Below are positions 1 through 64,000 of a stretch of DNA of 64,000 bases, piece after piece. The notes under the pieces are model-generated. The model was not told the DNA's origin. It was given only the letters and a program-made list of their open reading frames with translations, and did not search any database. Both the position numbers and the translations under genes were made by a program. The first letter of the stretch is position 1. Each line of letters opens with the position of its first letter. Source of the stretch: an uncultured Planctomycetales bacterium (GTDB taxonomy: Bacteria; Omnitrophota; Gorgyraeia; Zapsychrales; JAHFFX01); NCBI GenBank assembly GCA_964612665.1, contig CAZTCI010000001.1:508896-572895 (forward strand). The letters run 5' to 3'.

Positions 1-3000
1 ATGCAGCACACTTCCTAAACTGTAGTAATTGGGAAGCGGTCGCGTTAAAACAGCGGTCAAGAGACCTTCGACCCAGGCGAGGCGAATGTCGACGTGCTCT
101 GTTAAAGAAGTGATTTGATAACCAGGCTGGCTTTTAATAAATTCCCACTGCTGCTTGATTTGACGCACAAATGAAACGACGCGGTCAAACACCGACTTGA
201 TTTCGCCAGCTATATTGTCGTGCTGTCTTTTAATTGTTTCGTTGATCTCTTTAATTAAGTCCATTAGGTTTTCATAACTGAACTCTTCTTTAATGGCCAA
301 TGAACTTTCTCTTTGAGTGGCAGCATCAGTTATCTCATCCCAATAAGACTGCACAGTTTCAGTAATAAGCTCCAGGGCGTTTCTCACATCATGCAAGCTG
401 AATAGCATTACTGCTTCAGTTTCTTTACCTTCTTCTTTATTCTCCGACGGAGGGATCTCCTCTCCAAAAAGACCGGCCACCAAATTACAGAGTCTTTCTC
501 GTCCAGCGATCTTCGGAATACGGATGACCTTACCTTTATAATCTTGGTTAGGTTCAACTTCAGTCCAGTATAAAGAATCTGTAATACCATACCCTCTAAA
601 ATCATAAGCCAGGATATCGTCGTCTTCACCACTTCGAATGATCATGGGATTAGGGAATCCGATTCTTTTCATTTCCACAATCAATTCAATGCCCGCATTA
701 TTCTTTCCCATCTGATTATCCGTCAACAATAAGTCAACGAGTTTTCCTTCTGCCAAAAGCTGATGATACGTTGATAAAGCCTTTTCCTTGTTGGCAGCCG
801 TATATACTTGATAACCTCTTTGTATTAAATCATTGGATATTGTCTCAAGCACGTCTTCGTCGTCGTCAACCAGCAAAATTAAGCGTTTATACGCCTGAAC
901 ATTGGGAGTTAAAATGGATAAAAGAACAATCATCATTAACCAATCTAACGACACAAAAATGCCTAATGTGGCTCTGGACTCCACTCGCGTTGAATTCTCC
1001 AACCCATTGAACCACCGTTCGACAATTAGCTCGAAATTCCGCAGTTTCGGATCGAATTGCGCTCTCATTTGGATCAGAAGCGATTGGATTTCCTCAATAT
1101 CTCTGAGCGAATTCATTCTAAAATCGGCTTCAAGAATTTTTCGTAAGGAATCAATTAGATATTGTTTCCCATCGGGGATAAAGGCCTTAAGTAATTCTAC
1201 GATTCTGGTCCTCGAGAATCCTCTATTCATCAAGCGCAAAACATGTTGGTTATTTAAAAAGGCCACAATATTAATTGCCGCAAGAATGTCGACATCTTCT
1301 AGGAGGAAAAGCATTTCGTTTAGTGAAATAAATTGCCCGGCTATTCTTAAATGCCAACTGAAAGAAGTCTTAAATTCTTCTTTTCTCGGCAGGCGATCCG
1401 CTTTATTTACAATCCGCATAAAACGCGCCAGCGAATTGATGCCCATTAGATAACCATCAAACGGTCCTTGTTTTAAGAGTTGCATTGCGAATATATCAGT
1501 CAAAAACTGCGGCGTAAGATCCTTTGTGTCCGTCGTCGAATAAAGTGGAGAGCTACGATTGAAAAGCTCTCGAAGGAACTCATAATAGGACAACACATTT
1601 TTCTGAATGTCCTGATAATCAGAAACTCCCGCATCAACAGCCAGCGCCACGGCCTGGCCAAGCAAAGCCAAGTACTGCGGCTGGCTGATTCCGACGGGTT
1701 CAGTGAGTCTCCATAAATCAGAAATTAGCGTGTCGACACTTACTGGAATATTATCTACCCCAATTATGTGCTTGAATCGATTGAAGCTGGCAGCGACCAG
1801 ATTCTCATCGTTCCTAGATTTATCCAACCAAACTTTCTGCCACTTTTCAACCGATGAGAAGAATTCCACCTGAACAGCCGCAGGTTGTCCAATATCAGCA
1901 TCTAAATTCTCCTCGAGAATACGACCGTTGCTCAACACCAAATAATTAACAGGAAGCATTCGGATATAATCCAAATACATCAAACGATCCTCATCCCTAA
2001 AATCTTCAATCGCCGGTTCGATGAGAATGATTTGGATCGGTACTTTGAGACCAAACACCGCCTGCATGAGGGCAATAGCAAACTTCTTAAAAATGCAGTC
2101 AAATGCGGTACTGCCGATCAAAAAGACAGTCAATTTCTTGGAGTCTCGCTCTTGATTTTCAATTAAAGATTTCAAAAACTGGGCGGTTGAATGTCGCGAA
2201 TTGCTTGCGTGCCAGCGCTGAATTATGCGGTCAGGGCCGACGGGAGGATTCTCCGATTCGATGGCCGAGGAGAGAATTTTGCAAGGTTGCTGTGCCACTG
2301 AAAGTTCTTTCACGTCAACCGTTTTTTGATTCCACAAAATGGAACGTAAAAGATTGCCTGCTATTTTTGCGGCACTTCCTTTTGGCGAAGCCGAATAATC
2401 ATTAACAACATCGATTCCAATGCCCCGTACCGCCGCGATAGCTCCTACTGATACGAACAAGCCTGTCACAGCGCTTAAAACTGTCGGCAAAATCTGCGCC
2501 AGCATCCATAGGAAGAAGGTTAGAATATCACCGTGGGGTAAAACGATCATTTCATAACTTTCTTCATCCGACGACATAAATAGTTCTTGACCTTCCAACT
2601 CTTCTTCTAACGATGACAGCCCTTGAAACTCCTGCGTCAGATGTTCCCAGCTAAGTGGTATCTGTCTTTCTTGTGCCTGTATCATGACCAACTTTGCTTT
2701 TTCTTCATCCACACCTAATTGTTGAGCCAGGGCTTTGGGATTATTAATTAGCTCGTACCATTGTTTTTCTGTTACTTGTTTTTGCAAACGCCAGTAGCGA
2801 AGTAATTCTTGGGAGTGACCAAATTTCGCTTCCAATAAGCGTTTAACCACGTTTCTAAAAACAGCTATTACCATGTTATAAGTTAACGCGCCTAGGGCCA
2901 TGAGATAAAATGAGAAATGGAAAGAATAAACTGCTTTTGCTTTTGCTTTTGCTTTATCTTTATCCATCTTGAACTCTGCATCGGTAAATGCCAGCAAATC

Positions 3001-6000
3001 TGTGAATATAGAAATTCTGACTTGCCATTGACTGGAAAGTTTATTCCACGCTGTTGGCTTGCCATCAAATGTAATGATTGATGGCAATTCGTAAGATTGG
3101 CCCTGGACTTCTGAAATCCAATATTGTCGTATCCGGGATTTACCGAGAAATGTTTCGTCACTTCCAACAACAACGAGTTCTTCGATCAGTAATATTTCGA
3201 TAAAAACTCCCTTATCTTTCGCATAATCCATAATAATAGCGGCGGCATTCAAGAGACAATCGCCATATTTCCCGCCGAGCAGAACAACCTGAATACCGTT
3301 TTCTTGGAGAAGGAGATCTAAGAATTTATAAATACGCTGACGGTCTTCTTTAGAAGATTCATGAATTTTTTCGGGCTTGGGTTCTTCTAATTCTTGAACT
3401 ACGATCCCACGCTTTTTTAATAAAGTAACCAAAGATTTAAAAATCGGCTGCATCTCTCTTCCCAAATCACCAGAAACGCTACGATAATCCCTAACTTCGA
3501 AAATTCCAATTGTGAGAGACCTGATTCGATTTATAGCTACAAAAGATTCTTGAGATGATGTGTATTGATTTCGGCGTTTTTGTCGTTGAATAATAATAAA
3601 CTTGCCAAATTCAAAGATAACTATGCCCAAAATAATACTAACCATTCCCACAGTAAATCCCAACATCCCGGCCGTTTCTTTGGTGGCCTTTAAATAAATA
3701 ACATCCGCCGATAAATCTTTATGACCACCCACATTGATAATCATCTGCTGTTCATACGCTAAAGAAAGCGCGGCCGCTTCGTTGATTTCAAATCCGGCGG
3801 ATTTGACCTGAGCGATCAGTTGGTCTTTAAGTTCGCCGAGCGGACCAAAGGATTCTTCAATCATTTCACCATTGAAGGAGACGAGATGTTTAGTTGCCTT
3901 AATAATATGTATTTCACCTCCATGGGAAAGGACGTTATAAACCTCAGATAAAACTATGGACGGCCTCGTCGATTCAAGCACGAAACTAAGCAAGGCCACA
4001 TCAAACGTCTCTGGCGCAAACGACAAATGCTGGGCGTCTCCATTCACCCAGAGACCATCGCTTACTGTGTGTTGCACGATGCGTATCTTTGAGAAATTAT
4101 TATCTAATCCAACAACGACATTCCCCTGTCTTCTTAACTTACCGGCGATGCCGCCGGAACCAGTACCTACATCCAAAATACGATGACCGCTCCCAATTTC
4201 CTGCAGATACCAAAACGAGAGCATAAAAGAATTATTAATAGTGTGCCGCAACAAATCCTCCAACGTTATGATGATGGGCTTACGCACGGCGGCAACAGAG
4301 ATCATTACTACAAGCAGCATCCATTTTATTAATCCGACGAACCAGATCATCGAAATCAAAGAATAAATATCTACATACAGCGAATTATATTGGCCTTGTT
4401 TATAATGTTCATTCGCACGCCTGATCAATTCTTCATGGATCCGATCACCAATCGGAATCATCCCTCGCCGGTGATTATCGGCCAAATATCCGAGCGCCTC
4501 TGCCAATGTTTGCGCGGCGATGCCGAAAAATAGGCGGACATCATTTGTGCCCATTATGCGGGCCGCGGGATTGGGCGCTGGGGGTTTTTCACGCGCGATA
4601 AACTGGCGGATTTCTTCCAGGACATTGAAGACTTCGGTGAGTTGTTTGAGTGTCTTGACCGATAAATGCGGTTGCGGTTCAACAAAGACAATTGAGTTGA
4701 CCAAGGCCAGCAGATGGTTTTGAATTTGATATGCATAATTATCCAGGTCTTTTATATTGGTCTGCTCGGCAACATGCATTTCATAATCTAAATCTTGATT
4801 AGGAAGATCAAGGATTTTGATCGACAACAGCCCTTTGTGTTGCATCTGTTCCAAAGCCGTGTACAAGGCGGCCATTGATTCCATGAAACCTTCACCCGAC
4901 GGAATATAAGTTTGATTCTTTAATTTCGGACCTTCGCTTCTCTTATCTTTCTTGGGCACAGACTCTTTCTGCGTGTAAGGTAAGAAAACGGCGCCTAATT
5001 TTTGGTTGTCTTTCTTGCCATAAAGGAAAAATTCAATCGCCAGCTGCGGAAAGACCCGGACCGTTTTGGGCAAAGCATCAATAGAAAATCTTTGTATTGT
5101 GACGTCCGCTTTCTTAATCGAGACATACTTGGGGTCCTTAAAGAAAATGACCGCTTCTCCATAATCCGTTGAAATCAGGAACTCAACCTTTTCGCCGGCT
5201 GCAAGATTTTGCTCAACCGCTTTCAAATTGATCGTCAATTCAGACTGGGAATTCTGTTCAAGTACTTCTTGTTGGGAGATCGGCTGTCGTCGAGGATGAT
5301 AAGAAGCAACGTCGAATGAACTTCCTTCCAGCAGCATAAGGATAGTTACGACCAAATAGATATTTTTGAAAAGTTGGAATGAAGATTTAAAGCGCGACGC
5401 GAAAACAGCAATTAAAACTAACACCGCGATAATTACCCAAAACTCTTGTGAATGAATAAGGGAAAAATTACTTCCCTCATCAACAGCATTCAAATCTCCA
5501 TTCTTGGCTCGAACTTCCCAAGTTTTATCAGCTTGTTGGTAAGAATTCTTTTGAATCGCCTCTCTAACTCTTTGAGTCAAATCATTTTCGTCGATGCCGC
5601 CAACGTCGATCCAATTCACGAAGGCAGCAATAATATGCTCCTGAAATTCCTCCGAACTTGCCGACATCCTCACTCCGATTTCCATAAATTCTTTGGCCGC
5701 CCTTTTGAGTTCTTCAATGGCTTGACTGCGTAATGACAAATCCTCGATGCTTCTCGCCAGCGTCCATCTCAGCTGATTGTTTAAATACCGTATGAACGTC
5801 TTTAATTTCTCCATATCTCCCTCGAGTAACTTAATTTTCCATAATTGATTGGCCAGCCGGCTGATCGTTTCAAATGCCTTTTGCCAGGTCTTTTCCGACG
5901 ATGAAAGCGAAAGACGCTCTGCCATTAAAAGCAAAGTCTCATCCAAATATTTCAACTCATTCGATGGATAAAAAAATAAATAGCTATCGTAATCATCCAT

Positions 6001-9000
6001 GCGTCCCATTGCGTGGCTATGATAAAGATCTCGCTCGGGAACAAGGGCGATATTCAAAACATAATCTCTGAACGGTGCTTTTTCATAACTGCAATTTTTT
6101 TCGTATCTAAGCCAACCATCGAGATTTTCCATCGCCATTGAAAAAGATCCACGAAGTCCCGGGTTCGCCCTCCAAGCAACGATTTTCAGTAAGAGCTCTT
6201 TCAGTTTGTGATTTTCAAGTAACCGGCCCGTCGCTTGTCCTTGCCAGTTTAGTTCTTCCACATTAAACAACATCTGCGCCAAATATTGCGGAATCGAATT
6301 TAGTCGCCCTTCGGTCCCCCAAAGATCCAGGGCATTTGTTGACTGAGGATCGTTCGAGATCGCAGGATCAAATGTTTTGAAGTCCAGCGCCTCTTTGAGC
6401 ATCCATAACGTTAGATCCTCATAAGTAAAATCGGAAAATCCGCCATTACGCAAAGACAACGGCTGCTGTAATTGTTCACTCATAACAAAATAAAGTCCGA
6501 TCAATCGTCGGAGGCCTTGAATCAGCGGCGGGAAGTCAATCGGATAAGTTCTTTCTTTATCAAAGTGCATTCCAATTGTTCGCACATGCAACAAAAAGAA
6601 TATCGATGTCCAGGCGGTTAACCATTGTTCTTTCAGTTGTCCACCTGCCCAAAACCACATTCGTCGGGTTCCTATTTCAAATGGTTCGACATCCTCAAGC
6701 GAAGCCAAGCGCACAATATCCTGATTGGGATGACCATACTTTGATAACCAGCCTCTGGCTTTCCAATACCGACGCAGACAATCGCCGATCAATGAAAGCT
6801 CTTGCTCCGAAAGTGGGAGCAAATGACCATCTCCTGTCTCACTATCCATTCTTTCAGAAGTAGCATTCACAATTAGATAACCTAAGAGCTTTGTGAAACG
6901 TTGACTCTCGTGAGTGAGAGAATCAAAAATGGTTGAAGCATTAGCATTATGCAGGCTATACAAAACATATCTTCTCTGCTTTTCGTTATAATGTTCCGTA
7001 TTCAAATCTATCTTAGAATCTAACGTAAATTCCCACGCAGGTGGAAGTAACATGCCTTGCGAATTGATATACCCTAGTTGAACAAGATCATTAAATAACT
7101 GTGGCAAGTCTTTGTCAGGAACAATCCCCTTAAAACTTTTCAAGCTTACCGCATCATATTGATCGAGGAGGTTTGTCAGTGTTTCGATCCATTGCGCAAC
7201 GGGCCGCGATGTATTCTGAGCATTGGAATCAGTTAAAGTAACTTTCTGCTGTCTGACTGAGAGACGACGCCAGAAACTCTCTCCCCATGACAACTTCAGC
7301 ATCATCAAAATCCCGAAGACAATCAGCGCAAGCCATCCCCAACTTCCTTCCGCACCCGTCGTTGGCCAGAGAATCAGATGGCTGCTCAATTCATTTCCCG
7401 ACGCTGATTGAGCACTCAACATCACGATCCCCATCGCAGCGGCAATCATTCCGCCGCGCAGGCGTCCCCAAAATCCTCGTACTAAGCGAATTGCTAACGT
7501 AACAACGAGACCCGCAGTAATGACGGTCAATAATCGATTGAGAATAGATTGCAAAAGGTTTGAAAAAATAGGGTTGTGCTGCAGGAAGGAAAGAAGCGGA
7601 GTATCTTTTTTGCCGACGGGCGGGGCGTTGGGCTGCATCTTAGCATAGTGCCACACAATCAAAATACTAACGCCAATTAAAATCAATAGATATTGCACGA
7701 GTGAGTAGGTGTCCATGTTGAAAATGTTATTTGTTTTAGTCTCCCGATCAAAACCTCCATCCCGTTCGGCGAGCATCAGAAAAGCCGTCTCGGCGATGTG
7801 CATGTCGCTGATGCCGTGATGCAGATAGATTTTATGCACGCTGCGCGTCGAAAGACCGTTTCTGACGAGGCCCAGGTCCCAAACGCCCTGTCCTAACCGC
7901 AACCGATCACCGATTCCAGCGAGAAACTCCGGCGATGCATCCGCGACGGTAACAACCGGGGTGAACTTCCGTTCAGTCTTTGGAATTAATTTTTCTAATT
8001 GTTCGAATAGATTTTCTCTTCCTAACCGTCCAAGAAGAAGATTGGGGCTCGTCACCACAATCACATTGGCGTAAATGGGATAATTTTTATGAAGTTTCAA
8101 AAGCTCGTCGGACGCGGACAAGGCGGCCTGGACCATAGGACCGATGGCGACGATGTTAACCACATTGTCATCGGGATGGTAATCAGGAAGATGGCTGTAA
8201 TCGACGAGCCGGTAACCGCCTTTGAGAATTTCTGGGCCGAGACGCTTGATGGCGGCGGGTTCATTAAGGCCGGAATAAGTTTTCTGTTCCCGCAACCGCC
8301 GGAACAATCCGCTGCGTTCAACCAACAGGCTCGATGCGCGGATATACACGGCGTTACGCCCGTGGTCATGGCCGGTCAACATAAGTTCAAAGGTTTTTTT
8401 CAATATATAATCTAACTCGTCAAGAAAAGCCGGTTCCCACATAACCGTGTTGGGCATCGCCCGGCCGATGTCCGCCGAGACACTCGATTGATGTTGAGCA
8501 CCGTCGGTGGCCAGCGTTGGGCCGGACGGTGTTCCGACAGCAATAAATTGTGAACCCCAGTACTGGGCGTAAAAAAATTGATCCAGCGCCCGGCGGAATA
8601 AAAACATATCATAGATCGTAACAACCGGAATCAAACGCACGCCAAACAAATCATAAGCCTTGCCAAAAGCCGCCGCCAAGGTCACGGCGTTCATTTCTGT
8701 AATGCCAATGCGTAAATGATTTCCCGCAAATGAATCGGCGCTGACAACACCTTGAGTGGCGCCAGGAGCAATCATTCCCGTAGATGATCCAACATCCGGA
8801 GAAATCGTGACCAACCGCGGCGCTATTTTCTGCCAGAAGCGATCGTCTTCGGAAAGGTCCGCCGCCGCCGATTGACTGAGTAGACCTTTCACCCTATTAA
8901 TCGACATACCCAGATATGTCTGCGTTGGAATTCTCCCGCGGGCCGGTGAATAAAGTTTTTCCGGCCAGATTTGATTCTTTAATTCTGCTTCAAACGCCGC

Positions 9001-12000
9001 GCGGTTTGCATCGATCATTTGCTGCGCTTCGGCGGCTTCATGATCTAAACGTGAACGGACATTCTTAAGTGTCTTAAACTCGACGGAAGTTTCATTGAAA
9101 TTGGGGAATGGATTATCTTGCGGCATGCCTAATTCGTTACGGACCTGCGCCAATTCTTCGGGAGTCAATAACTGCGAATGGTTTCCTTCCTGACCAATCA
9201 TCGGTCTTAGACCCCAGCCTTTGATCGTATGCGCAATAATTACCGTCGGGCGATCGCTGGCGCGGGCTTCGCTCAAGGCTTTGATTAACTCAACCAAATC
9301 ATGGCCGCCCAAATCGGTAAAGAGCTCATAGATTTTTTCATCGCTGTATTTCTTCAAGAACCGCTTTATTGGCCTTTTCCTTTCCAAAGAGAGTTTCTTA
9401 TTCTTATCATCCAAGGGAAAAGGCCTAATATTGACTTTTGTTTCTTCCTTTGGATTCACAAAAGTCAATAAAGAAGAACGTTGTTCGATCATCCAAGCGC
9501 GGATTCCGGCGCCGTTTTGAGCGGAAAGATTTTGGTAAACTTTCTGGTCGATTGTTTCCATAACTTTCCTAAAGACACTTCCCCCTCGTCGGGCAAAAGC
9601 CGCTTGCAATTTTCGGCCCCAGCGCAGTTCAACGACTTGCCATCCAGCCGCCGCGTACATTCCGCGCAGTTGATCCAATTTCCAGTTTTCGGTATTTCCG
9701 TCGAGTGATTGGCGGTTGTAATCGACAATATGCGTCACGCGGTCCAAGTTAAATTCTTTCACTAACGTCAGAATCTCCCGCAGGTTTCCTTCTTCAGATT
9801 CAGCATCACCCAAGACCGCGAAGAAATGCGAATCAGAAACCGCATGGCCATGCGCCTTGAGCCATTTCCAAACAACGTTAAGTGCTAAGGCAACCGCCGG
9901 CCCTATGCCAACCGAGCCCGTCGGAATTTTGACGCCGTCCGGGTCCGCCATTCCCGGATACGCGTGCAGGCCTGGTTTGTCTAATTCATCCGTGTTGACT
10001 TCCGGATGCTTGGCGATGAAGGCGGCTTTTAATTCTTCAAGTTCTTTTAAGACTTCTGGCGCAAGACGGCCCCTGATATCTTCAGCCCTGAAATCAACCG
10101 GCAGCCGGACAGCGTTATCACGCAAACGATAAAGTGTATCGACGGGTAATCGACCTAAAAGATATTGAATGGCATGATACACCGGCGCGGCGTGCGGTTT
10201 GTGGGCGACAAAATCATGACCGCGCATGACAGCCAGCTCGAGGGCGATCATAATGTGCAATGCAGACGCGGATGCAGCCTGGTGCCCGCCGGTTTTAGGC
10301 AGTTCATATTTAATTTTATTGGCTTCATCAATTTCACCGATTGAAATCCCAAGCGCCCGACGGGCGATGCTTTCTAAAGCTTCGATGTCCTTCGGTGCAA
10401 ATCCTTCCGGAATTTTATCATTTCTATTTCGGGGAGGCCGGTGTCCGGATGAGCTCATTGCAACAATCATCATCGTGGACAAGAACAACGCAGCCACATG
10501 TCCACCTACGAAGTAGGACACAGCCAATAGTCCATCCAGTGCCAGCGCGATGAGGACAAGCGCAGTTGCAAATACGGTGGAGAGGTTTTGATCTGAGCAT
10601 TCTTTTATTCCATTTTTTGTTTTTTTGGTTTCCTGAGCTGAAAACTTTTTCCACCAGGCAAACGTTTCACTCAAACCCGTCCCAATATTCTTTTGTCGTC
10701 TCAACTTGTTGACAATCAAAATGATTAATGTTATGTTGGCGTCGAAAAGATCATTGATCAATAATTGCGTGGCCCTCTTTGAAAGATGGGAGAATCGTAA
10801 GTGAAGATCTGGGAATTTGAATGGGACAACTGGAATATTGAGCATATTGCTAAACATTCCGTAAAATCTCAAGAGGTAGAAGAAGCTTGTTATCGCCGCC
10901 ACGTCGCTAAGAAAACTAAAGATGACATTTATCTTGTCTATGGTCAAACGTATTCTGGCCGTTATCTTTTCATCGTTATTAAATATAAATCTAAAGGAAT
11001 TGTTTACCCTATAACCGCTCGAGACATGACTGATTCTGAGCAGAGATTCTTCCTTAAACGGAGGTAACATATGATTAAGAAGTCTTCTGTAATCCCAAAA
11101 TTTAAGAATGTCGCCGATGCGGCTGAATTCTTCGATCAACATGATACGACCCAGTTTCTCGACGAATTGCAACCAGCGCATCTTAAGTTCCCTAAGCCCA
11201 AGCATCTTTTGATCACCTTGAAACCTAAACAAATAACGAGGCTCAGACGCTTGGCCGACAAAATGGGTAAACCTTCCGATCAAATTGTTGAGCAATGGAT
11301 CACCCAAAAACTTGCCGAAGGGTAATGATCTGCCCAATGTGGCACGGCTCAATTTCTTTACAATCTCTTTAAAAACGCCTTTCGCTTTATCTGAGGATTT
11401 GGTTCGAATCGTCAGTATCAACAGCAACACATCAACGGCCAACACAAGGAACATCAAATGTAATCCCGGTCCCGGAACAAAATATCCTTTAAACACAACC
11501 ACCGGACGTTCCTCATCAGGCAGAAAACCTAATTCCTCGCGGATCTCCTCGGGAGATATTCTTAAAATATGTATGGGCTGAGGATGATCTTCAAAATATT
11601 TTAAGAACAGGCTTGTAATCGTTTGTCCGTTATCAGAAGCAATATGAAGACGGCCCAGAATAAAAAACGTGTCTTTAGCAGCTTTTCGGCCGCGCGATAA
11701 GATATTGATCATATTGGGGAACATGAATGGTTCCCTTAGGTCAATAGCGAATCTAAAGTTCTCCGAGACATTGATCCCTTTCAAAATTTCTTGAACAGCG
11801 GGCTCGGCCTGGCCGACGACATGATTTTCGCGTTTGGCTCTGGCCATGAGGGCTTTTATAAAAACAACAGTCAAATCACGCCAAGTTGTCAAGTCTTTAA
11901 GCATGTCCGCTGAGTTATCCGGGGGCAATGTTACGATCGCGGAAAAAACGAGACTGTTCCGGGTGTTGTAATAAAGAGAAATGCGTCTGTATAACGTTGT

Positions 12001-15000
12001 AACAGGGTGCATATAGCCGGGAGGTAACCATTGGGCCAAATCCTGCCACGTGGGAAGGATGAACAAATTCAACGCAGAATGAATAAATCCTCTTTTTAGC
12101 GATTGCAGTTTATCTAAAGAAACCTTCGAAGGGTCGGACAGCCATTGTTCATATTGCAGATAGTCATCTAATCGGGTGGCCAATTCATAACTCAAAATCT
12201 CCTCGACGCCAAACAAATGTCCTTTGGTACTACGGTTAAAATGGGTCGACACATACCACAGTTCGTCTTCTTTAAACCGGGCCACTCCTTCGACACCCGC
12301 AAAGATTTTCTTGCGTGCGGCCAGGAGATGGATCTCTTCTCTAAATAATTCATGCTCGGGATTGGTATGGTTTTCCCCGATTAAAAACAATCGCGGTGCG
12401 GATTCGGGTTTCAGGCGGACAGCGAGGAAAATTAATGTGCTCAATAAAAACGTCAGGTTTAAACTATTATCGAAACCATGGACGGCAATAAAGAAGCTCT
12501 TGAAATTTTCAGTCTTTTCCAATTTTCTTGACGACAATTCTTTATTGATCTTGTTGCGTTCTGATGACACATAGGCCAGGACAGCATCCAAAAATTTTCG
12601 ATGGATTGAATCTGTGGGTTTTACAATACGGCCATATTCCGCATATAACGATACAGCTTTATCAAAGGAAACTTCCCAACGGAAGCTGACAGTCTTTTGC
12701 CAAACAATGATTTGGCCCCGCCCGACAGATGACAAGAAGGCATTGGCTTTCTCGTCCGACGGGTTTTTCCGCGCCTGCAGCAAAACACACTCTCCATTAA
12801 ATGGAGGATAAAGAACCATCCGGTAAATAAAACCCAAATCACCCCCAAATTTTTGTTTCCTAAATAAATTTTCCAGTGCCTTGAAATGATGTTGTCGGTT
12901 GGAAATATCTCCCCCTCCTTTAGGAAGATATCCGGCAGCAGCATTAATCTTTGACCAAATTGCTTGAACGGCTTTTTGTTTGACATTAAATCTTTCCGCT
13001 ATCTGTTGATCACTTAGACCTTCAACGAAACCATATAAAATATTCAATTGTTTTTCCGTAAATACTGGTTTTGCCACATCGAATTTTGGAAACGGAGGCC
13101 TCCGGTCGACAAGTCCTAACTTTCTCGCTTTTTTGATAAGTTCCCTTCGCTCCGACGTCACAGCCAACACTTTATAAAGTCTCGAAATCTTTGAGCGTAT
13201 ATTGATTGCCGGTGAACTCAGCGCCTGGCCGATCTCAATCGTAGTATTTCCTTTATTAAGCAATCTTAAGATATGAAGTTCAAGCTCACTTAGGATGAAC
13301 GCATGTTTTTTTGCGAAAAGTTGTTTAGGTTTAACCAGCCGCTCAGACGATCCGAAAATCGCCACGCGGTATTCTTCATGCTGATTGAAAAATTTCCAAA
13401 GAAGATAAGGGTAATCATTATTAAAGTCGCGGGGTCCGCTTTTAATTTCCAGATTTAAAAGTTGATGAATTTGGCTCCTTGACTTGCGGATGGTTTCGGA
13501 CCCTGTCTCAAGCTGAGCGGCAATGTCCTTGTCATTTAATCCAGCATAAAGGCCTTTTAGAATGGCTATGTGTCGCGAAGAGAGTTCTTCGACGGACGCA
13601 CAAGATTGAACGCTGCGCGCTATGGCCGCGAGGACAGCGACAAAGATAAAACTGAAATTGGATAAATAATCCGATGGATTTGTAAGGATAAAAAAGTTAT
13701 GCTCTCGCTGCAACCCTGGCAAAAGACTTTGATTATCTCTTTTACGAAAGACTTCAAAGGGTTGAACAAACATAAACTGCGCGCCCGCTGTTCCCCTGCT
13801 AGTTTTAAAAACTTCACTTTGCCTAATCTGATTATTCAACGCATCGAGCGCTTCTTTAAGCGGTTGCGAGGTAATCAAATCTTTCCAGCCTCTTAAGAAG
13901 CCTATCTGTTCGAGCGCGCCAAAGATCCATGGTTCTTCATCAAACACAATAATGGTATCACTAGACCTTAAATCCCTTAATGTATTAAGCAGCCTAACCA
14001 CGACTGGTTGATCGATCCAAAAAGTTCCTTTTAGAATAACAGTCACACTTTCTTGTCCAGCTCGACGTAGAAATTCGACAATATCATCCAGCGCGTTGTC
14101 GATGTGTAACGTTTCCTTAGGGTAAATTCTATTTAGCAAAATTTTTTCTGGCTCCATAAACTGATTCACGAATGATTGCAGCTCCTTATAAGCTCTTTGC
14201 CGGTCTTCATGGTCATAGAGCCGGTCAATTCCGAGGACCAATTGGGCCGGCAGCTCCGCCACAAAAATGTCAACGCCTATTGCGGGATAAATCCGATACG
14301 GTTTTAAGAGACCAACCGCCGCTAAGACTTCTAACTCTCGCCGCCAGGCCTCGGCCAATGGCCCATAATCAACGCTTCCCCGCGATGCCAACCGTCTGCC
14401 TTGTTCTTCAACTATCATGGAAATCGCTTGAATCTGCTGGAGAATTTCTTCTTCGGAAATTATTTTGCCTCCGGTCCGTCTTGTGCTCTTTCGTAACGCT
14501 CGAACCAAAAATATAACCAGCGCGCTAATTGAAATTAGAGCAGCTGCGGCATAAATAAAACCAGTATCAACTAACATCGACGATGATTCTGGATATTTCG
14601 CGTCATAAGTTTTCGCTAATTGATACAACGTCCGCTCTACACGGTCTTTAAGACGGAGGAATTGCCTTTCTGATAGGGTCAATGTCACCATTATCTCTGG
14701 CCAGGAGCATGTCAGAATATGATTATTATTGTTTTTCTCAGCGAAATCACTTTGGCTTGTATCACTGACCGCATCCATAAGGACTTCCAGTTCTAATAGC
14801 GCTTTGACAATTATCTGACTTGTTTCTTCACCTCGACGATAAACATCGGTCATATCTTGTTTGGTTGGCTCCAACCTTTCATCCGTTGAAGGTTCCGGAA
14901 CATTTTCAAGTTCCGTCTCAAAATCAAAAACTTGCTGCTCCAGTTCTCTTCCCTTCTTAACAGCCCAATCCAAGACCGACGCTTTATAAAACAAAAGTAC

Positions 15001-18000
15001 AAATTTCGGCCCGCGCAAATTATGCTTTAAAATATTTAAAATCCTTTCGGCTTCTTCTTGCATCTGGACATAAGAAATCTGGTCTTCATAAATCTGACCC
15101 ATGAGTATCTCAATCAGCTTTCGTTGATCTACATTTATTCTTTCCTCTCTCCAAATTCTCTCGAGGATTGAAGATGTTCCCGACAACTGGACAACCGGCA
15201 TCAGAGTCTCATAAAATTGAAACACCCTCTTTATCATTTCTGATATTTTTTCTGTTCTTTGTCCTTCATGCTGAGGCTTGAACCAAATATCGACTTCCGA
15301 CGTCACAATAAAATTCTTCATCTCTTCGTAATTGGTATTGATCTTTTCTCGAAAACTCTCAATCTTTTCTAATATAACGTTAAAGACTTTGTCCCACCCG
15401 ATTTCAGCTTCGGTTTTGTTTTCATCGGCCGATTTTGTGTCTCCCTCTCGATCCCCTGCTATGCCTTCCGAATGATTTTCAGTGACGATTACCACTATCA
15501 CTGCTCCCACCCACAACATAAAAGAAATGACCGAGAGATCTAAGAAGGAATGCTCATTGTTCCGGTTTCTGTTTCTGAAATTTCTCCTCCGGCCTGATGA
15601 ATTAAATCTTTCTGTCAACCGCCGTAGATCCTCTAAGTTTGCACTCATGCTCAAACCGTAGTCATTAAAAATATCTCTCAGCGTTTCGGTGACTTTGGAA
15701 ATTCCAGAAAAATCGACCTCTTGGCTCAATGAAAGCATTTCCAAGTTATATTGCCGCAGCCAGCCCTGAAATTCCGCGGGGGTGATTCCACGGGATTCCA
15801 AAGCCTCCCAAAGCCGGAGTAATACAATTCCCATTTCTTCGATTGTTTCCGATTGCTGCCGTTCTATTAAATATTCTCCGCTTGTCGCGGGTTCTGGCAA
15901 TCTTGCCGGTTTTTTTCTTGTTTTTTCCGGCCGGGGAATTCTATGGCGAGGAAAGGCATTGTAAACAGCGCGCTGTATATTTACGAGTTCAGTCACTCCG
16001 CTGCTGATGGCATTTTCAGCCGCATGCAATGCCTTTGTGAATTTACTCCGGCTGGAATTGAAAGACTCGAGGAGCCATGGAATAACTTGTTGGTTCAAAA
16101 TTTCTTCACCACGGCGTCTGGCTTCTTCGCTTAAATTAACCTGATGGGATAAAGAAATTCTCTTATTCATCCAGCGGTCTGCGACGACTAATCCTAAGAA
16201 TTTATATTCAGGATACTCATAAAGATAAACACTGTAACGCGGCTCGTCTTCATTCAATTCGACTAACCGGTATGACCTGCCTTCGCCCCGAAAATCTTCA
16301 TAAATTCCTTCACCCAAATCTCTCAAAGAAAACCAGACAAACTCTCCATCTCTAATCTTGAAGATATCCTCCAGCCATCTTCTTTCTTTTGTTATCTGAA
16401 CGAAATACTTTCCGGCCTGCAATTCTTTGGGGGTGGAATTTTGGGGATTAGGTTTCCGGCGTGTGACTAATGTAAACCACAGCCATTCACTCTGATCGCC
16501 GCGTGCCGTAACGATTTTGGCTTTCAGGGAAACATAACCTCGAGTTCCCCATGAATACCAAAGATCAGCGAATCCGCCTAAATACGCGTCTCCGACGTAA
16601 ATTTTATCTAAACGGTAAAGACCTGTAGATACTCTTGGGTCAACAGCTTCAATCCCTTGGCCTTTCTTAATAATCATGTCGAAACCCTTGCGGTGAAAAT
16701 CAGCGATGTCTTTTCTCACATGACTACTCCGCGCTTTAAGCAGCTTTTGTTGCTTTCCTTGAATGCCCCAATAGTGAAGAATCGGGGAACGTTGTAATTT
16801 TCCGCCGATATTTTCTTCAAACCATACCGCAACATACTCGGAATAAACTGAAGACCAGCGCAGCCCTAAGTTTCCATAACGCTTTCGGACTGTAAACGTC
16901 GAATATCTTTTTCCAAAGAGCGGAATCTTTCCGTCGGCGGTAGTTTTAACATTCTCAATCTTAAGCAATTCATATCCTTGGGCAGACCATCGCTGCGCCA
17001 GTTCAAGACTAATGACACTGTATTGGCCCAAATTTTTTTCACGTTGTCCTTCGCGTTTCGATCCTTTAACGACCAGAATTAAACGCTGTTGACGATCGAC
17101 CTCATGCAGCACCATTTCCTGCTTCACTCTTCTCCATAATTTTGTCCACAACCGTATCCAATCTCGACGGCGCGGATAAATCCGTCCAATTTCAATATCA
17201 TTAATAACTCTGGCACTAATGTCTGCCAAAAGGCCGGCGTCTTTTTGGGACATTCCTAATGACTCCCGCACGGCTTTTAATCTCTTCCCTGGTTCTTGAT
17301 AGAAGTGATCCAACAATATCTTCCAGTCTCGCACCCCCCATCTTACCCGTGCCCCTTTTTCTAATCCCTTAATTTTGAAAGGAGTGGTATTGGATAAGTC
17401 AGCGATTTTTTGCGGCGAGAGTTCTAATATATTCCTGAATAACTTTAACTCTCGTCGGGCTTCTTCATACATTGTATTCAACAATAATGCCAAATCATCG
17501 GCTTTCCATCTGGCATTCTTTGACTTTAAATCATTAATTCTATTTCTACTGATATGCGCAAGAGCCGCGAGTTCTTCTGGCGACATTCGCAAAGCTTCCC
17601 GCAATATCTTTAATTGCCGACCGGCCTCTTTATGCAGTTTATTCAATATAATATTCCAACGGTCAACACTCTCCCTAACATGACCATTCTCTAAAGCACT
17701 AATGCGTCTGGCCCTAACCTTGCTCAAAGCACCAACATCTTTTGCCGTCATTCTCAAAGACTTTCTTAATACCTTTAATTGCCGATGGGCCTCTTCATGC
17801 AGGTCCTCGAAGTTCCATAATTCCGATCGGGACATGTTGAGTAATTCTCTGGATCTCTCTAACAGTTCAATCGATTTTTTATCATCTTGCCCCTGTCTTT
17901 GGGAAGAAGCCGCCATGCCAAGAATCACTAAGGATAAAACGGAGTATACCATCCATAAATTGCTTATAATTTGAACAACCGTTAAGATAATAATCGTCGT

Positions 18001-48000: not shown

Positions 48001-51000
48001 TAATTGATCGAACAGCGGCGCCGAAATCTTCGCCGGGACTTGGGTACGTTTGGCGGTATTTATAATCAACACAATAATGACAACCGCCAGCGCCAACATG
48101 GTAACAGCAAGAAATTTCTTATTTGTTGATTCAGGATTGCTTTTTTGGACCGATGGTAAGGATGTCCACGGCATTAAGACTCCATCGACTGAGAATCGCG
48201 CTGCCAAGGCTTCCGGCGACACGACGTAATTTTGCGGGAGAAATATATCCGCCAGAAAGTTCGGGTCTTTTTGACTTCGACCTTCTGCAGTTTCTACTCT
48301 GATCAGTAAAGAAAAGACATAAACCTGAAGAGGTATGACATTTATATCTGTCTTTGCGTCTTTCAAGACGGCTCCGATATGATGGAAACTAACAATCTTA
48401 TAAATTGTTTCATCATCAGAAAAAGCAGCCGTATCGTGGAGAACACCCGCCAACCATTCTCCATAACCGATACGCTTTTGAAGGTCCATGAGATGCTCGG
48501 ACCGGATGCCTCCAGCTTTCTCATATTTAATATCTTTGATATACCCTGCCCCTTCCATTCGCATAATTATAGCGGCCATCACTTTAATAAAGTCGCCAAA
48601 TAAAGTATGCGCCAAATCCTCCGACGGAATATCAGATACATTTCGAACACCTTTCTGAGCGTAATGTTCCAGTATGCTAAAAAAGGCCTTACGACCTTCT
48701 CTCAATGAGCGACCGAGATAAGGAAATTGAGTTAAATAATCGGCACCCGCCAGTTCCTTGACCAACATGCCAAGAAGAATCGTCTTTAAAATCTTGCTTT
48801 CTTCGCTCGAATCCTTTGTATAACGAATTAAAACAGGAATAATCCTCGGATTAATTAGAAAATCAAATTCAAGATATCCTTCACTGTTGATTGCGAATCC
48901 TTGATCTGTCATCTGGGGAACAATCGCGATGGGTGATTTGGAATCTCTGGGAAGAAAATCAAACTTACCGGTCATTCGCTTTAGGATTTCAGCCCAGCGC
49001 CGTTCGCGCTCATCGGAAGAATGAGCCCATTGAGCGGCTGTTGTCTGGAAAAATTGTCTAATAACCCGTTTAATTTCTTCGGGAGAATCAGGTAAAGATT
49101 CCTTTTCCTTGCGGGAAACAGCAGGAACGGAATTCGATGGTGCGGCAAATATGAGCGTTGATGTAAAGAGGAAATGAACGGCCGTCAGAAGAATCAAGAT
49201 CTTCTTAGAAATCGGCGGCGGTGAATTCTTCTGACGTTCAAAATAGCGTCGAAACTCGCTTAGACTCATCAATCCGCCGGCGAATCTTCTCCCAATAAAT
49301 ATAAGCATTACAACAACCACGCCCAGAATCGCATACCCATCTACACCCCGGAGGTGTAGATGGGTAACAGGATTTTTCTCTGACTCAAAATCACTTTCAG
49401 CAAAAGCACCTTCCAAAAGTGCGCCGACACGTTTCAGCCAAACATCAAAGTCAATCGCTTCATGCTGTGCCAACCACATAATGGCCTGCTCGAGCACTTT
49501 CACATGCCGAGGAAGTGCTTTTTGTTTCCAGGCCGGTAACGCGTTATAGGCCATGACATCCACTTGGACGCGGGCCGTTGTCCAATTTTCCTGTATGAGC
49601 AATGCGCGTACACTGCGCAAGACGTCTGCGCAATTTTCTATACCAATCGCATCAGTGAGAAATATGTCGATGTGCGTTGCATTCTCTTCTTGGGCTTCTA
49701 CCTTGGCCCATACATGAACAGCCGAAAGGTCGCGGTATTCAGCGACGACGGAATTCACCAGATCAATCAACGCGCTGCGGTCGTCGCGGTGCATGGTCAA
49801 TGCAATGTCCTGATTTTCCAAAACATCTTTGAGATGAAGCAGGAAGCTTACAACTTTATACGTGCCGGCCTGCGCAGCGAGTTCGATGCCTCTGGAGACA
49901 ATTTCCATGCGGACAACTGGATTGCGAAATTCAACAGCTGTCAGACCTAAAAGATCGTTGAGCGCAACAACGCTCGGTGATCTGTGAATCTCGTCGGATA
50001 ATTGATTCATAACAGTCAAGACACGATCCATTTCTTCTGTTTGAGCTTCGATAGCCGCTGACAAACCGTTAAGTATGTATAAAATCCAACGGAATTCTGG
50101 ATTATATTGCTTAGTCATCGCTGATACTATTGCCTTCGCCTGTCGAAGCGGCGCTCGAGCCAGATCTATTTGATCATTTGAATAGTGACTCCAGGCCAAG
50201 TACACGTAAGCAGCCACTTTTTGCGGTTCTAAAATATTTAATGATGTGATCGACGTCCAGCGTCTCACAGCTTCATCATATTCTTTTTGTTCAAAACTAA
50301 TTCTAGCCTGAGCGATTGCGGTCAAAGACAACACGCGGCCCTTTATGCCCAAATCGGAATACTGCTGGCTCCATGCTTTCAGAAGCCTGATTCTCTCGAC
50401 GGCAGATTCGAATTTCTGTTCCGTAATATCTATGATGATTCTGTAATAATTGGCCAGAATGTCCAACTCGATATAGCTAAAGTGGGGATGAAACTTCTGG
50501 GTCAGCATTGGCTGATAATGTGTCACATACCGATTGTTGATAGCGAGCGCCTGCACAAACGCTTGATTAGCTTCTACATAATGTTGCTGATCAAAATGAA
50601 TCATGCCTTTAAACAACGTAAACCATGCTTGTTCCAAGGAATCATCAGGGAATTTTTTGATCGCTTGATCGGCGGCCTGCAAAGCGGCTTCAAATTCTTC
50701 AAAAAGGGCCAAATGTAAGACCTTTCCAGTCAACTGCACAGACATGTCATCATCTTTTTCTGTCCTTTGTACCAAAACGCTCTGTTCCTGACGTGACAAC
50801 CATATCTCGACGGCATTTTGCACTTTCGCGACATCCAGGTTTTTCACTCTCGTCGCTTTCGAAAGAACAGCGCGTACCGTCGCTTCGTTTTGAATGCCAG
50901 CGACCAATGTTCTTAACTCCTGATCACTCGGCTGACCGCTTGGCAGATTCGGCAAAACATTCCGCAAGGCTCGACGCAGAGACGCATAATCTGTTTTGGG

Positions 51001-57000: not shown

Positions 57001-60000
57001 GAGAATGGATTTCAAACTCTCTAATACATGTTCGGTCTGCGTCAAAACGTCCGATTCCTCGGCTTCAAGCTTATCGGCCTCAGCCATTAATTCTTCAACC
57101 TTATAGGCTGGAGCCCTATGCGTTTTTAAAGCTGCCTCCATGTGAACCATTCTCGTCCTGGCCGCATCAATGAGTGCGATGGCTCGTTTTTCTGAAACCT
57201 CTTGCATGTATTGGGTCAATGTCTTCCCGAGTGCGTCCTGATCACTGGCTAATGTTTGTAATTCATTCCGTCCTTCCTCGGAAATCTTGGATTGATGAAC
57301 GGTGATGGCACTGATCGTCAGCGCTGCTTTACTCACATCATCCGTCATCGTCTTAAGCCTCTGATAAAGATCATTAAACTCCGTCAACAAGACGCCCATA
57401 TTATCATCACTGACGATTAGTGTCTTCTTTAGATAAGTGGCTACGGATGCATTGATCTCTAAAGACACAACGTTGCGCATCTGCGTCAATCGATCCTTCG
57501 TTTTTTCCATTAAATCTTCGAGCGTAATAAATCGATGACCAGCTTCAAAAGAGTCCTGAAGCAAGATCATTTGCGTCTCTTGCGTTCCTTGATAGACATT
57601 GCGGGTCTCCTCAATCAGCGTCTCAATGGATTGAGGATCTTGCTGCAGAATTTGGGCCGCTCTTCTTATTTCCGCCACGGCCAGCGTCCAGAGATCCTCG
57701 TCGGCCTGATCCATCAAACGTTGCGCCCAAGCGATAAATTCAAATTCCATCAACTCTTGATTCCAAGACGAACTCAATTCGTGAATCAATTTAATCGTTT
57801 CAAATTCGGGAGACTCTTTTAAATAATCTCGTCGAACCATTCTTAAAATACGTGCCTCGATGACATCGAATTCATCCCAATTAGAAATTTGTCGATCAAT
57901 GAGGAACTCGGCGACCTCATCCAGCGTTTTGAGTTTTACGATCGCCGTCAACAATTCTCGCTCTTGTTTCGATTCTGTCTTCTCTTCTTGTTGCAAGTTT
58001 TCGTTCGATTCTCCGTTTGCACGGAAAAGTTCGTTATGCTTTGCAGATCCTTCTTCGATCGATTCGTTAATGGCATTCGCCAATACTCGTCGGGTGTTTG
58101 GATCAAAAGCCACATTGTCCGGGAGATCTCTGCGCATGCTAAAGTAAACAAATAATATTTCGCGCCGTTCTCCTTCCCGCCAGCTATATCTGAAAAAGAT
58201 TCGATATGGTTTCCAATGAAGTTCTTGTAAGTTCAAGTAATTAATTCCAAATCCCATAATCACCTTGCCCAACGCCTTCCCATGCTCAATTTGCGATGCC
58301 GACGTCATCCATCGATCGATCTCATCCAGTAAACGCTTCTTTTCTTTCTCGTTGAGTTCGGATATGTTTTCATAAAATTCTTCCGAGGCCCTAGCTCGTA
58401 AACGTTTCAATGATGTGCTGCCATTGGCATAAATTGCTGTGCCGACAATAATGCCAAGGATAAACATCCATGAAAACGACGTGTCGATCATAATCCCCAC
58501 CACCGCTCCGATGAGAATCATGCGGAAGAGGTGATCCGCCGTGAGATGGTAGAGATGACGAAGGACGTAGGCGGAGACGCCGATAAAGAGGATGCTAATG
58601 AGCAACACTGGCGAGATCGCTTTGAGATTATGATGTTTCGACGGGTTTAACTCACCAGCCTTCTCATCCAAATGCTGAGTGATGTCTTCAACGGGAATGG
58701 CAAGACCATAATAACGTATAATTTCTGATAAATTGACAAAAGTGGTTTGGGCTTCATCCCATTGTTTCAGAGTTTGAATCTGTGATACCTGTTGCGCCAG
58801 TTGATGAATCTCTTCGACCATAACATCATGCAGCGCGTCTTTCCGAATGGCTTGACGGCGAGATTCAATCTCGTCGATCATCTCTTGGAAGGTCTGACGA
58901 TAAGCATCCAGAGCTTCCTTTGTCGATTGATATTGATCATCCAGCAAGGATTGCTGTTTTTGTAAACGCGACTGCAACAATCGTACGCGCTCAAGGGGAT
59001 CTTGAGGATGACGTCGCTTCGCCTTCGCTTTGGATATCGTTTTCCGCCCATGAGGATATCCTACAAATTTTTGATCACGAATCACGCGCCGGACGGCTTT
59101 CCCCTGCGTTTCTCCTCGCTGATTCTTTCCGGTGATGAACTGAATCGCACTTCGCCTTTTATTCCAGATGTTATCCGAACTGATTTCAACCGGCAAACTG
59201 ACTCTGATGGCACTGTTGGGCCAGATGCCTTCGGAGGTATCAATTCCAAAAGACAGCCGGATGATTTCAGCGGCCGCCGAATCTTTCCCTTGCAACTCCG
59301 CATATCTTAAACGCATCGCCTCAGCCTCGGGAGTATCGATCTCACCGCGGAAAACCTTTCTCAATTCCAAATCTCGCGCATTCAACACGACCGCTTTTTG
59401 CTTAATCGCCAGAACCTCCTTTTTCCTGGCCTCAGGCAGAAGCAAGATGGTTGACAACGGAACATTGAAAGCTGCGGCAAATTGAGGCAACGCACTGATC
59501 GAAAGCGTGCCGTCTCTCATTTGCTTCTGAAGATTTTGATAAAACATCCCGATCCGCTTGGCAAAATCTTCTTCGGTTAAATCGCGTTCCAGGCGAAGGA
59601 CCAGAAGATTGGCGAAGATTAAGCGTACAAATTCTTTTCCATCCGTCGGGCCGATGAACGGATACTCGGCTTCGTCTAAATTATCCAAAAAGAAAAGCAA
59701 TGGATTTCGCTGCAAGATATTCGCTATCTGGACAATTTTCGCCACCTGCGTGAATTGCAAATTATTTTCAATCCGGCGAATAGAATTCCCCGACATTCCC
59801 AGTTTTGTCGCGAGCCCTTGACGGGCTAAATCTGATGACGATGCTTCACGATATTTTTCAACCTGAGCGCCCACCCATTGACCATAGCGTTCAATTTCTT
59901 CCAATTTCTCGGGAGTGAAAATACTCGTCCTCGACTTCCTATCCACTCTGGCCATCCCGGCGAGGAACATCAGGTTAAGACCAAGGGCGGTGAGGGATAG

Positions 60001-64000: not shown

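Follow-up and report, generated by a model that had tools for sequence, protein, structure and literature searches.

Across a 64,000-base stretch of contig CAZTCI010000001.1 (positions 508,896 to 572,895) from an uncultured bacterium placed in Omnitrophota, referred to below as the window, one reading frame of the minus strand is free of stop codons from end to end, and complete small operons lie inside it on the opposite strand. We interpret this open reading frame (ORF), called here the giant ORF, as probably a slice of a real giant gene of the membrane-threaded, multi-module class, forming one translation unit under selection against stops. The mosaic of modules is itself an ordinary member of a recently described class, and the nested toxin-antitoxin (TA) operons, together with codon choices that leave the giant frame open, are the notable part. 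Two general questions are whether bacterial giant genes really are translated over their full length and by what route they grow; the window offers a handle on translation from sequence only.

One open frame across the window

1..63999, minus strand: internal slice of the giant ORF, 21,333 codons, both ends open (stop-free frame, uniform coding signature)

A previous sequence-only reading of this DNA had reported one frame open over the whole window, and the stop counts bear this out. Minus-strand frame 1 contains 0 stops in 21,333 codons, compared with 849 to 1,344 in the other five frames, and from base composition alone the log10 probability of a frame without stops is about -560. The coding signature is uniform as well: GC content at the three codon positions (about 0.52/0.35/0.47) is constant along the ORF, and in a codon-usage scan by segments of 270 bases the giant frame ranked first among the six in 704 of 709. 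All sense domains recognised by Pfam and NCBIfam fall in this single frame; for about 80% of the chain no domain could be recognised. Neither end of the ORF is reached within the window and its 21,333 amino acids (aa) are a lower bound; it therefore exceeds the 10,000 aa from which proteins are classed as 'large', the class 'giant' beginning at 30,000 aa.

Nested antisense operons

What is in our view the most unusual feature of the window had been overlooked in the previous reading: within the ORF, the other strand carries complete operons. Our Pfam scan covered six plus-strand ORFs of at least 150 aa and then 161 alternative-frame open stretches of at least 70 aa; a further 121 plus-strand open stretches of 54-69 aa looked like noise by eye. 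Three cassettes were found, with Shine-Dalgarno (SD) sites and sigma-70-like promoters of their own.

10709..11325, plus strand: brnT-brnA toxin-antitoxin operon, nested antisense (Pfam, promoter, SD)
23030..23510, plus strand: coiled-coil ORF, nested antisense (promoter, SD, terminator)
38147..38842, plus strand: vapB-like/vapC (PIN) operon, nested antisense (Pfam PIN, promoter, SD)

In the first cassette, brnT (10801-11064) has a GTG start and covers positions 1-77 of the 77 in the BrnT_toxin profile, with an E-value of 9e-07 and 29.5 bits, below the cut-off of 34.5 bits. The ATG of brnA (11071-11322) follows a GGAGG one stop codon past brnT, and its match to CopG_antitoxin (3-78 of 79, E 5e-09) is above cut-off. 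The operon is preceded by a promoter of the form TTGACA-17-TATGTT with an SD site. The vapC gene of the third cassette (38375-38842) matches the PIN profile over positions 2-118 of 120 (E 9.5e-09, 36.4 bits against a cut-off of 23.6) and keeps all four acidic residues. It is preceded by an SD site and a small ORF, and its promoter, TTGACA-17-TATACT, is the only 11/12 match in the window. The small vapB-like partner matched no family, and searches of PDB and NCBIfam added little on the small TA proteins. The second cassette carries a coiled-coil ORF that starts at an ATG at 23083 and spans 23083-23457, with a promoter TTGACA-17-TATTCT, an SD site, and a terminator made of a hairpin and a T-run after 23460. 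Of the four promoter-like sites with a perfect TTGACA on the plus strand, three belong to the three cassettes, and codon-position GC at vapC and brnT marks the plus strand as the coding strand.

The coiled-coil ORF also contains an in-frame TAG at 23203-23205, after codon 40, and may be a pseudogene, a readthrough case or the source of a 40-aa product. The only tandem repeat of the window, 21 bp in two copies (23278-23319), lies inside it; the window showed no Rfam family or tRNA and no other notable tandem repeat.

The giant frame stays stop-free across all three cassettes. We evaluated this by resampling, in which the TA protein sequences were held fixed and synonymous codons were drawn from the giant ORF's own usage. 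The probability that the giant frame would be free of stops over the TA genes was 0.056 x 0.54 x 0.17 x 0.04, or about 2e-4, and the same procedure gave 0.004 for the coiled-coil ORF. Full-length Pfam matches, operon order, promoters, SD sites and a terminator all mark the nested cassettes, as judged from these signals, as real genes. Since they are real and yet leave the giant frame open against the resampling odds, they point to selection for uninterrupted translation.

Chromosomal type II TA cassettes such as VapBC, BrnTA and HicAB stabilise cassette arrays such as superintegrons. The cassettes in the window are like these chromosomal cassettes in being small two-gene operons with their own promoters, scattered along an array of unrelated modules. 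Unlike the TA cassettes of superintegrons, they lie antisense inside an open protein-coding frame, and neither a flanking repeat nor an attC-like motif common to the three was found. No homologues of the TA proteins appeared in the other loci fetched, and text searches of West-Roberts et al. 2023 and Nielsen & Lui 2026 turned up no antisense, nested or TA genes inside giant ORFs.

Nested cassettes in relatives

A related locus (L006), from the Candidatus Omnitrophota metagenome-assembled genome (MAG) nzgw316, shows the same design. Its long ORF (3-14612) holds five antisense cassettes within 14.6 kb, spanning 3236-12217 on the minus strand of the locus: a DUF433 gene with a DUF5615 PIN-like gene, an aspartyl protease, two hicAB pairs and a ParE-like pair. 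The two hicAB pairs flank an E1-like module related to that of the window (see below). The strongest Pfam E-values here range from 5e-17 to 7e-21, with weak matches for the ParE-like pair and HicB-2, and the resampling product for a stop-free giant frame was about 1e-11. Judging from matching module positions, this long ORF most likely corresponds to the 5,930-aa protein P0004. A second locus (L001, from MAG nzgw299) has an antisense DUF5678 ORF at 6242-6496.

Modules of the sense strand

Modules were detected by Pfam profile search of the translated ORF, reported down to E<=0.01. The helix-turn-helix (HTH), enzymatic and signalling modules are as follows.

59700..59856, minus strand: XRE-type HTH, aa 1382-1433 (HTH_3, 23.8 bits against a cut-off of 23, marginal)
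50130..50610, minus strand: weak TPR-like stretch, aa 4464-4623 (TPR_16 and TPR_2, below gathering threshold)
43956..45669, minus strand: tandem duplicated XRE modules, aa 6111-6349 and 6441-6683 (Pfam; copies 76% identical)
42217..43704, minus strand: SecA-like ATPase, aa 6766-7261 (Pfam SecA_DEAD and P-loop_SecA, aa 6766-7224)
39232..39858, minus strand: histidine-kinase core, aa ~8048-8256 (HATPase_c, aa 8144-8251, E 8.8e-22)
31987..32109, minus strand: Sigma-70 region 4 HTH, aa 10631-10671 (Sigma70_r4_2, E 1e-08)
28813..28941, minus strand: XRE HTH, aa 11687-11729 (HTH_3, E 3.4e-12)
19360..20532, minus strand: FAD/NAD(P)-binding Rossmann module, aa ~14490-14880 (DAO; NAD_binding_8, aa 14504-14566)
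17149..17805, minus strand: two adjacent XRE-type modules, aa 15399-15617 (HTH_31, two stretches)
12928..13587, minus strand: three LuxR/GerE-type HTHs, aa 16805-17024 (GerE, E 1.9e-12; other two by eye)
7720..10413, minus strand: E1-like thiamine diphosphate (ThDP) module, aa 17863-18760 (Transketolase_N, Transket_pyr, PDH_E1_M, aa 18014-18543)
3886..4191, minus strand: class I S-adenosylmethionine (SAM) methyltransferase, aa 19937-20038 (Methyltransf_11, aa ~19942-20030, E 2.4e-14; motifs I-IV read)
577..879, minus strand: receiver (REC), aa 21041-21141 (Response_reg, E 1.1e-09, profile 1-95 of 111)

Altogether there are at least 14 divergent modules with mostly intact motifs, about ten of them HTH modules. 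Every module listed in the sequence-only reading was recovered by Pfam at its place, the first XRE being marginal and the TPR stretch below threshold. The description of the ORF as a mosaic of unrelated modules between hydrophobic segments also held, as did the claim of three LuxR HTHs, one found by Pfam as GerE and two more by reading the sequence. That list was incomplete, having missed the Sigma-70 region 4 module.

In the kinase core, the N, G1, F and G2 boxes of the ATP-binding domain are intact and the phospho-accepting histidine is ambiguous. Pfam HisKA was not detected there, and full-length NCBIfam models of AtoS/PhoR-type kinases align over about 190 aa, covering the dimerisation and histidine phosphotransfer (DHp) and catalytic (CA) regions. 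By sequence reading, the receiver keeps its DD...D...S residues and has diverged in the C-terminal lysine region. Only the GxGxxG beta-alpha-beta motif is recognisable in the Rossmann module, whose PDB match is limited to the N-terminal 50 aa. The tandem XRE modules match HTH_3 and HTH_19 at aa 6248 and 6581, and the adjacent XRE-type modules at aa 15399-15617 form an internal repeat with 36% identity.

The module first read as an SF2 helicase is indeed helicase-like, and it is specifically SecA-like, its PDB matches being SecA chains only. Aligned to canonical SecA, it shows Walker A (TSAGKT), LLDEAD, IEARSGI, GRPVFIAT, MGGRGVNI and ARIARNGEAG. It thus resembles the SecA translocase in Walker A, the DEAD motif, an insertion of the length of the preprotein cross-linking domain (PPXD), IEA(K/R)xG, the motifs of the second nucleotide-binding domain (NBD2) and the arginine-finger region. 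It differs in its low identity (about 24-27%), in the absence of a detected wing domain and in being internal to a larger chain. Neither the SecA_SW scaffold/wing nor the C-terminal domain was detected by Pfam, and the helical tail is short. An AlphaFold model built from a two-sequence alignment reached a mean confidence (pLDDT) of 36.5, and a word-index homologue search with this module returned a single weak canonical SecA only.

The E1-like module and its relatives

The E1-like module had been described as a complete enzyme with no E2/E3 partners, and both points stood. A 30-sequence alignment that contains the module shows no variation in the ThDP/Mg motif or at the positions matching E. 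coli Glu571 and His640, so the catalytic residues are intact, and the AlphaFold2 model (pLDDT 81.7) has E. coli pyruvate dehydrogenase E1 (1L8A) as its top PDB match, with a TM-score of 0.70/0.79. Pfam detected neither an E2 nor an E3 domain in the window. The score against TIGR00759 was 152.8 bits, compared with an equivalog cut-off of 859.9. The module is therefore like E. coli AceE (1L8A) in fold, in the GDA...DYNRQ motif and in the conserved active-site Glu, His and Tyr residues, but unlike it in its identity of about 20%, its lack of cysteine, its place within a giant chain and the lack of E2/E3 in the window.

An exhaustive phmmer search with the module and its flanks gave best relatives of about 50% identity, inside proteins of 1,428-5,930 aa. 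These long proteins share the E1-like module only, except that P0004 also shares the HATPase. A scan of species-representative genomes placed the closest embedded copies in the Candidatus Omnitrophota MAGs nzgw316 and nzgw299. In the former (L006) the embedded copy has 48% identity and the ORF is open for at least 4,870 aa; in the latter (L001) a single ORF fills the entire 6.5-kb contig and contains two E1-like modules in tandem. Homologue searches found no collinear orthologue of the giant ORF and nothing above 51% identity, and plasmid and phage collections gave domain-level matches only.

Stand-alone E1-like genes of 900-1,085 aa occur in Acidobacteriota (36% identity) and Bdellovibrionota (31-33%). 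The module belongs to a divergent clade of ThDP enzymes that is annotated as 'pyruvate dehydrogenase' and is widespread in stand-alone form in these two phyla. The stand-alone homologue of Bdellovibrio sp. HCB274 (L037, 9983-12820) has no adjacent E2 or E3 genes.

Hydrophobic segments and internal duplications

Hydrophobic linker strings quoted in the sequence-only reading are present among the hydrophobic 19-mers of the chain. There are 56 to 81 such non-overlapping segments, as the threshold for the Kyte-Doolittle mean is lowered from 1.9 to 1.6, or one per ~260-380 aa. Just before 8 of 12 cytoplasm-type domains, the helix has its lysine- and arginine-rich (K/R-rich) flank on the domain side. 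Across all helices, the K/R flank bias was not significant (p 0.07-0.7). No helix separates the two tandem XRE modules from the SecA-like module. In the window, only two weak hydrophobic segments (aa 17692-17710 and 17746-17764) are antisense shadows of nested genes.

Among 30 isolated helices the K/R excess is C-terminal in 18 and N-terminal in 6, a split that strictly alternating membrane passes would not be expected to yield. The HTH modules at aa 1382, 10631, 11687 and 16805 (59.8, 32.0, 28.9 and 13.5 kb) stand 8-80 aa from a helix, on its K/R-rich side; after the Sigma-70 region 4 HTH, a hydrophobic helix begins 28 aa downstream. In this arrangement the helix-adjacent HTH modules resemble membrane-tethered transcription factors.

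Similarities among the linkers, for which a search for homologues had been proposed, are local duplications within the ORF. Self-comparison of the chain gave a pair of direct repeats, in addition to another linker duplication (aa 13683-13724 against 14054-14095).

38901..39119, minus strand: 219-bp direct repeat, copy 1, aa 8294-8366 (internal self-comparison)
37695..37913, minus strand: 219-bp direct repeat, copy 2, aa 8696-8768 (78% aa identity to copy 1)

The two 219-bp copies bracket the segment with the antisense vapBC operon. Their ratio of nonsynonymous to synonymous substitution (dN/dS) is 0.35 with a dS of about 0.5, which suggests an old duplication linked to the vapBC insertion. For the tandem XRE copies dN/dS is 0.63, and the internal paralogues as a whole, transmembrane (TM)-containing linkers included, range from 0.25 to 0.63. 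These values indicate protein-level constraint in the giant frame.

Relation to known giant genes

A covalent chain of this kind had been held to be no known architecture, a claim that does not survive the literature, since giant Omnitrophota ORFs of the same design have been described (West-Roberts et al. 2023; Seymour et al. 2023; Nielsen & Lui 2026). West-Roberts et al. 2023 list methyltransferases, TPR and HATPase_c as recurring and highly divergent domains of giant proteins, and CheY-like receiver domains as common to the giants of Actinobacteria and Omnitrophota. Seymour et al. 2023 (PMC10066038) report ORFs longer than 20 kb, poorly conserved and sparsely annotated, in most Velamenicoccia genomes, among them the LiM ORF of Velamenicoccus archaeovorus with 39,678 aa and 42 TM helices. 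Nielsen & Lui 2026 (bioRxiv 10.64898/2026.06.07.730766) describe 916 long proteins of up to 147,155 aa. They distinguish a 'multi-enzyme' class, put PF08241 and PF02518 at the centre of a signalling domain module, and place the receiver PF00072 in a sugar-metabolism module. Omnitrophota giants are described as having numerous TM helices (about 1 per 370 aa), a divergent SecA_DEAD and mostly singleton sequences.

The giant ORF is like these proteins (the LiM ORF, the 'Archaeovorin' type, and class 1 'multi-enzyme' or Pfam module 1) in being longer than 20,000 aa, with many hydrophobic segments that may be TM helices at a density of about one per 300-370 aa, in its divergent SecA_DEAD without a detected wing, and in its content of methyltransferase, HATPase_c, REC and TPR. 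The signalling and regulatory Pfam set (PF08241, PF02518, PF00072 and TPR) is present in divergent form. As in the described giants, the domains have diverged strongly, annotation reaches only the smaller part of the sequence, and there is no close orthologue. Unlike the 'Archaeovorin' subtype, the slice showed no HEAT, glycosyltransferase, NUDIX or glycoside hydrolase domain at E<=0.01, and the dockerin domains of Omnitrophota giants were not found in it. Also unlike the described giants, it is unusually rich in HTH modules (XRE, LuxR and sigma-70 r4) and carries an E1-like ThDP enzyme; text searches of West-Roberts et al. 2023 and Nielsen & Lui 2026 turned up neither such HTH modules nor such an enzyme. 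The N-terminal signal peptide or C39/S8 peptidase of Omnitrophota giants, their upstream type II secretion/type IV pilus-like (T2SS/T4P-like) locus and their downstream pilZ would fall in regions outside the slice. The same architecture in the literature, the SecA-specific module, and the E1-like relatives in long Omnitrophota ORFs together argue that the window ORF is a further member, with no collinear orthologue found, of the known membrane-threaded multi-module class of the Omnitrophota/PVC type.

Proposed explanation and alternatives

We propose that the giant gene would have grown by local tandem duplication combined with shuffling or capture of modules, as suggested by relatives that share single modules and never module order. 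It would be translated as a single unit, beginning upstream of the window, and selection against stops, or a survivorship filter on insertions, would have left cassette codons that spare the giant frame. The hydrophobic helices could serve, one after another, as signal anchors and stop-transfer segments by which the chain is stitched into the inner membrane; the modules that depend on ATP, SAM, ThDP, FAD or DNA would lie on its cytoplasmic side. The SecA-like motor might help to insert or export the protein's own loops; a SecA-like motor aiding insertion of its own giant protein has been proposed in the giant-gene literature (West-Roberts et al. 2023). Such a product would amount to an array of regulatory and enzymatic modules tethered to the membrane.

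Several points weigh against this explanation. Both gene ends lie outside the window, and with them the start, any signal peptide or protease domain there and the neighbouring genes. The topology comes from a crude hydropathy scan, and the number of even helix-count intervals between cytoplasm-type domains varied with the parameters from 4 to 11 of 13. In the L006 ORF, 5 of 9 hydrophobic 19-mers fall inside the nested cassettes, which cover 20% of the ORF length, indicating that some 'TM helices' there are hydrophilic genes translated in antisense. A share of the 'TM linkers' in such ORFs may accordingly be by-products and not real helices. The segments opposite the cassettes are unlikely to fold, which is awkward for a purely structural role of the whole chain. 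A related 4,632-aa ORF (L082) showed no nested genes by eye. Finally, the relatives are linked to Omnitrophota only through the E1-like module, and one Elusimicrobia-labelled MAG also has an embedded copy.

Two other explanations are compatible with most of the data. The chain could be a polyprotein, a precursor cut by its own or host proteases into separate membrane-tethered or soluble proteins, in which case the release of HTH modules could resemble regulated intramembrane proteolysis. Such processing was raised as a possibility by West-Roberts et al. 2023 for giants bearing C39/S8 domains, which are reported at N-termini, and it would suit modules that are functionally unrelated, HTH modules that stand 8-80 aa from a helix, and junk-like filler opposite the antisense cassettes. 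However, the 21,333 aa gave no Pfam match to a protease domain at E<=0.01, and module borders showed no recurrent cleavage-like motif, so we regard a polyprotein as unlikely. We give a somewhat lower chance to the idea that translation matters more than its product. Here a ribosome would trail RNA polymerase along a transcript of more than 64 kb, avoiding Rho-type polarity and allowing distal modules to be expressed; the chain would be mostly tolerated filler, and the gene a sink that accretes DNA in either orientation. A frame that stays open even where the opposite strand codes, the ~80% of the chain without a recognisable domain and the lack of collinearity among relatives agree with this idea, but dN/dS below 1 in unannotated and linker paralogues and the conserved catalytic motifs of several modules do not. 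It also overlaps with the explanation that we favour and does not exclude it.

An artefact is very improbable in our view, whether it be a chimeric assembly, a pseudo-ORF that is not translated, or a row of independent genes taken as one ORF. One could cite for it the real genes on the opposite strand, the missing close orthologue and a 50-mer of the window that had no exact match in genome, viral or metagenome collections, a result that masking of the source would also give; against it, errors and chimeras create stops and do not remove some 1,000 of them, independent genes would need stops in the giant frame where there are none, and independent natural relatives show the same design.

The real giant gene that we favour leaves room for a broader view of such ORFs, which we put forward tentatively and at less than even chance: they may be accretion genes, translation tracks without stops into which foreign DNA is taken up whichever way round it lies. 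If so, sense captures would become fused modules, antisense captures, typically TA operons with their own promoters, would stay live nested genes with their complement as translated filler, and selection or survivorship would clear every stop from the giant frame. Part of the 'numerous transmembrane helices' reported would then be antisense shadows of hydrophilic genes. As for the nested TA operons, they might in turn protect the giant gene from deletion, or their antisense transcription might modulate it. Opposite-strand genes that have been recoded or filtered to spare the giant frame are hard to explain without selection for uninterrupted translation, and the suggested mode of growth combines duplication, module shuffling and cassette capture. 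If nested antisense operons are common in giant ORFs, they have probably gone unannotated so far, since gene callers presumably tend to suppress genes inside a longer ORF.

Possible internal start sites and cysteine content

Internal initiation of the modules was considered and rejected, because the in-frame Met codons of the giant ORF have no excess of SD motifs ahead of them. Only two strong AGGAGG + ATG sites occur in it, at aa 6330 and 6664 (near 44000 and 45000 of the window), each at the corresponding place in one of the 76%-identical XRE repeat units, and these may be internal starts, either fossil or still functional.

Cysteine is strongly depleted in the giant ORF, with 35 residues in 21,333 aa (0.16%) and 0 in the 900-aa E1-like module; text searches of West-Roberts et al. 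2023 and Nielsen & Lui 2026 turned up no mention of cysteine. Avoidance of stop-adjacent codons was rejected as the cause, because Trp and Tyr frequencies look ordinary. Most of the long relatives (P0002-P0028) are also low in cysteine, at 0-0.54%, with 0 in 5,710 aa for P0007 and 0 in 2,647 aa for P0028, and the stand-alone E1-like homologues checked mostly contain about 1% (range 0.13-1.4%).

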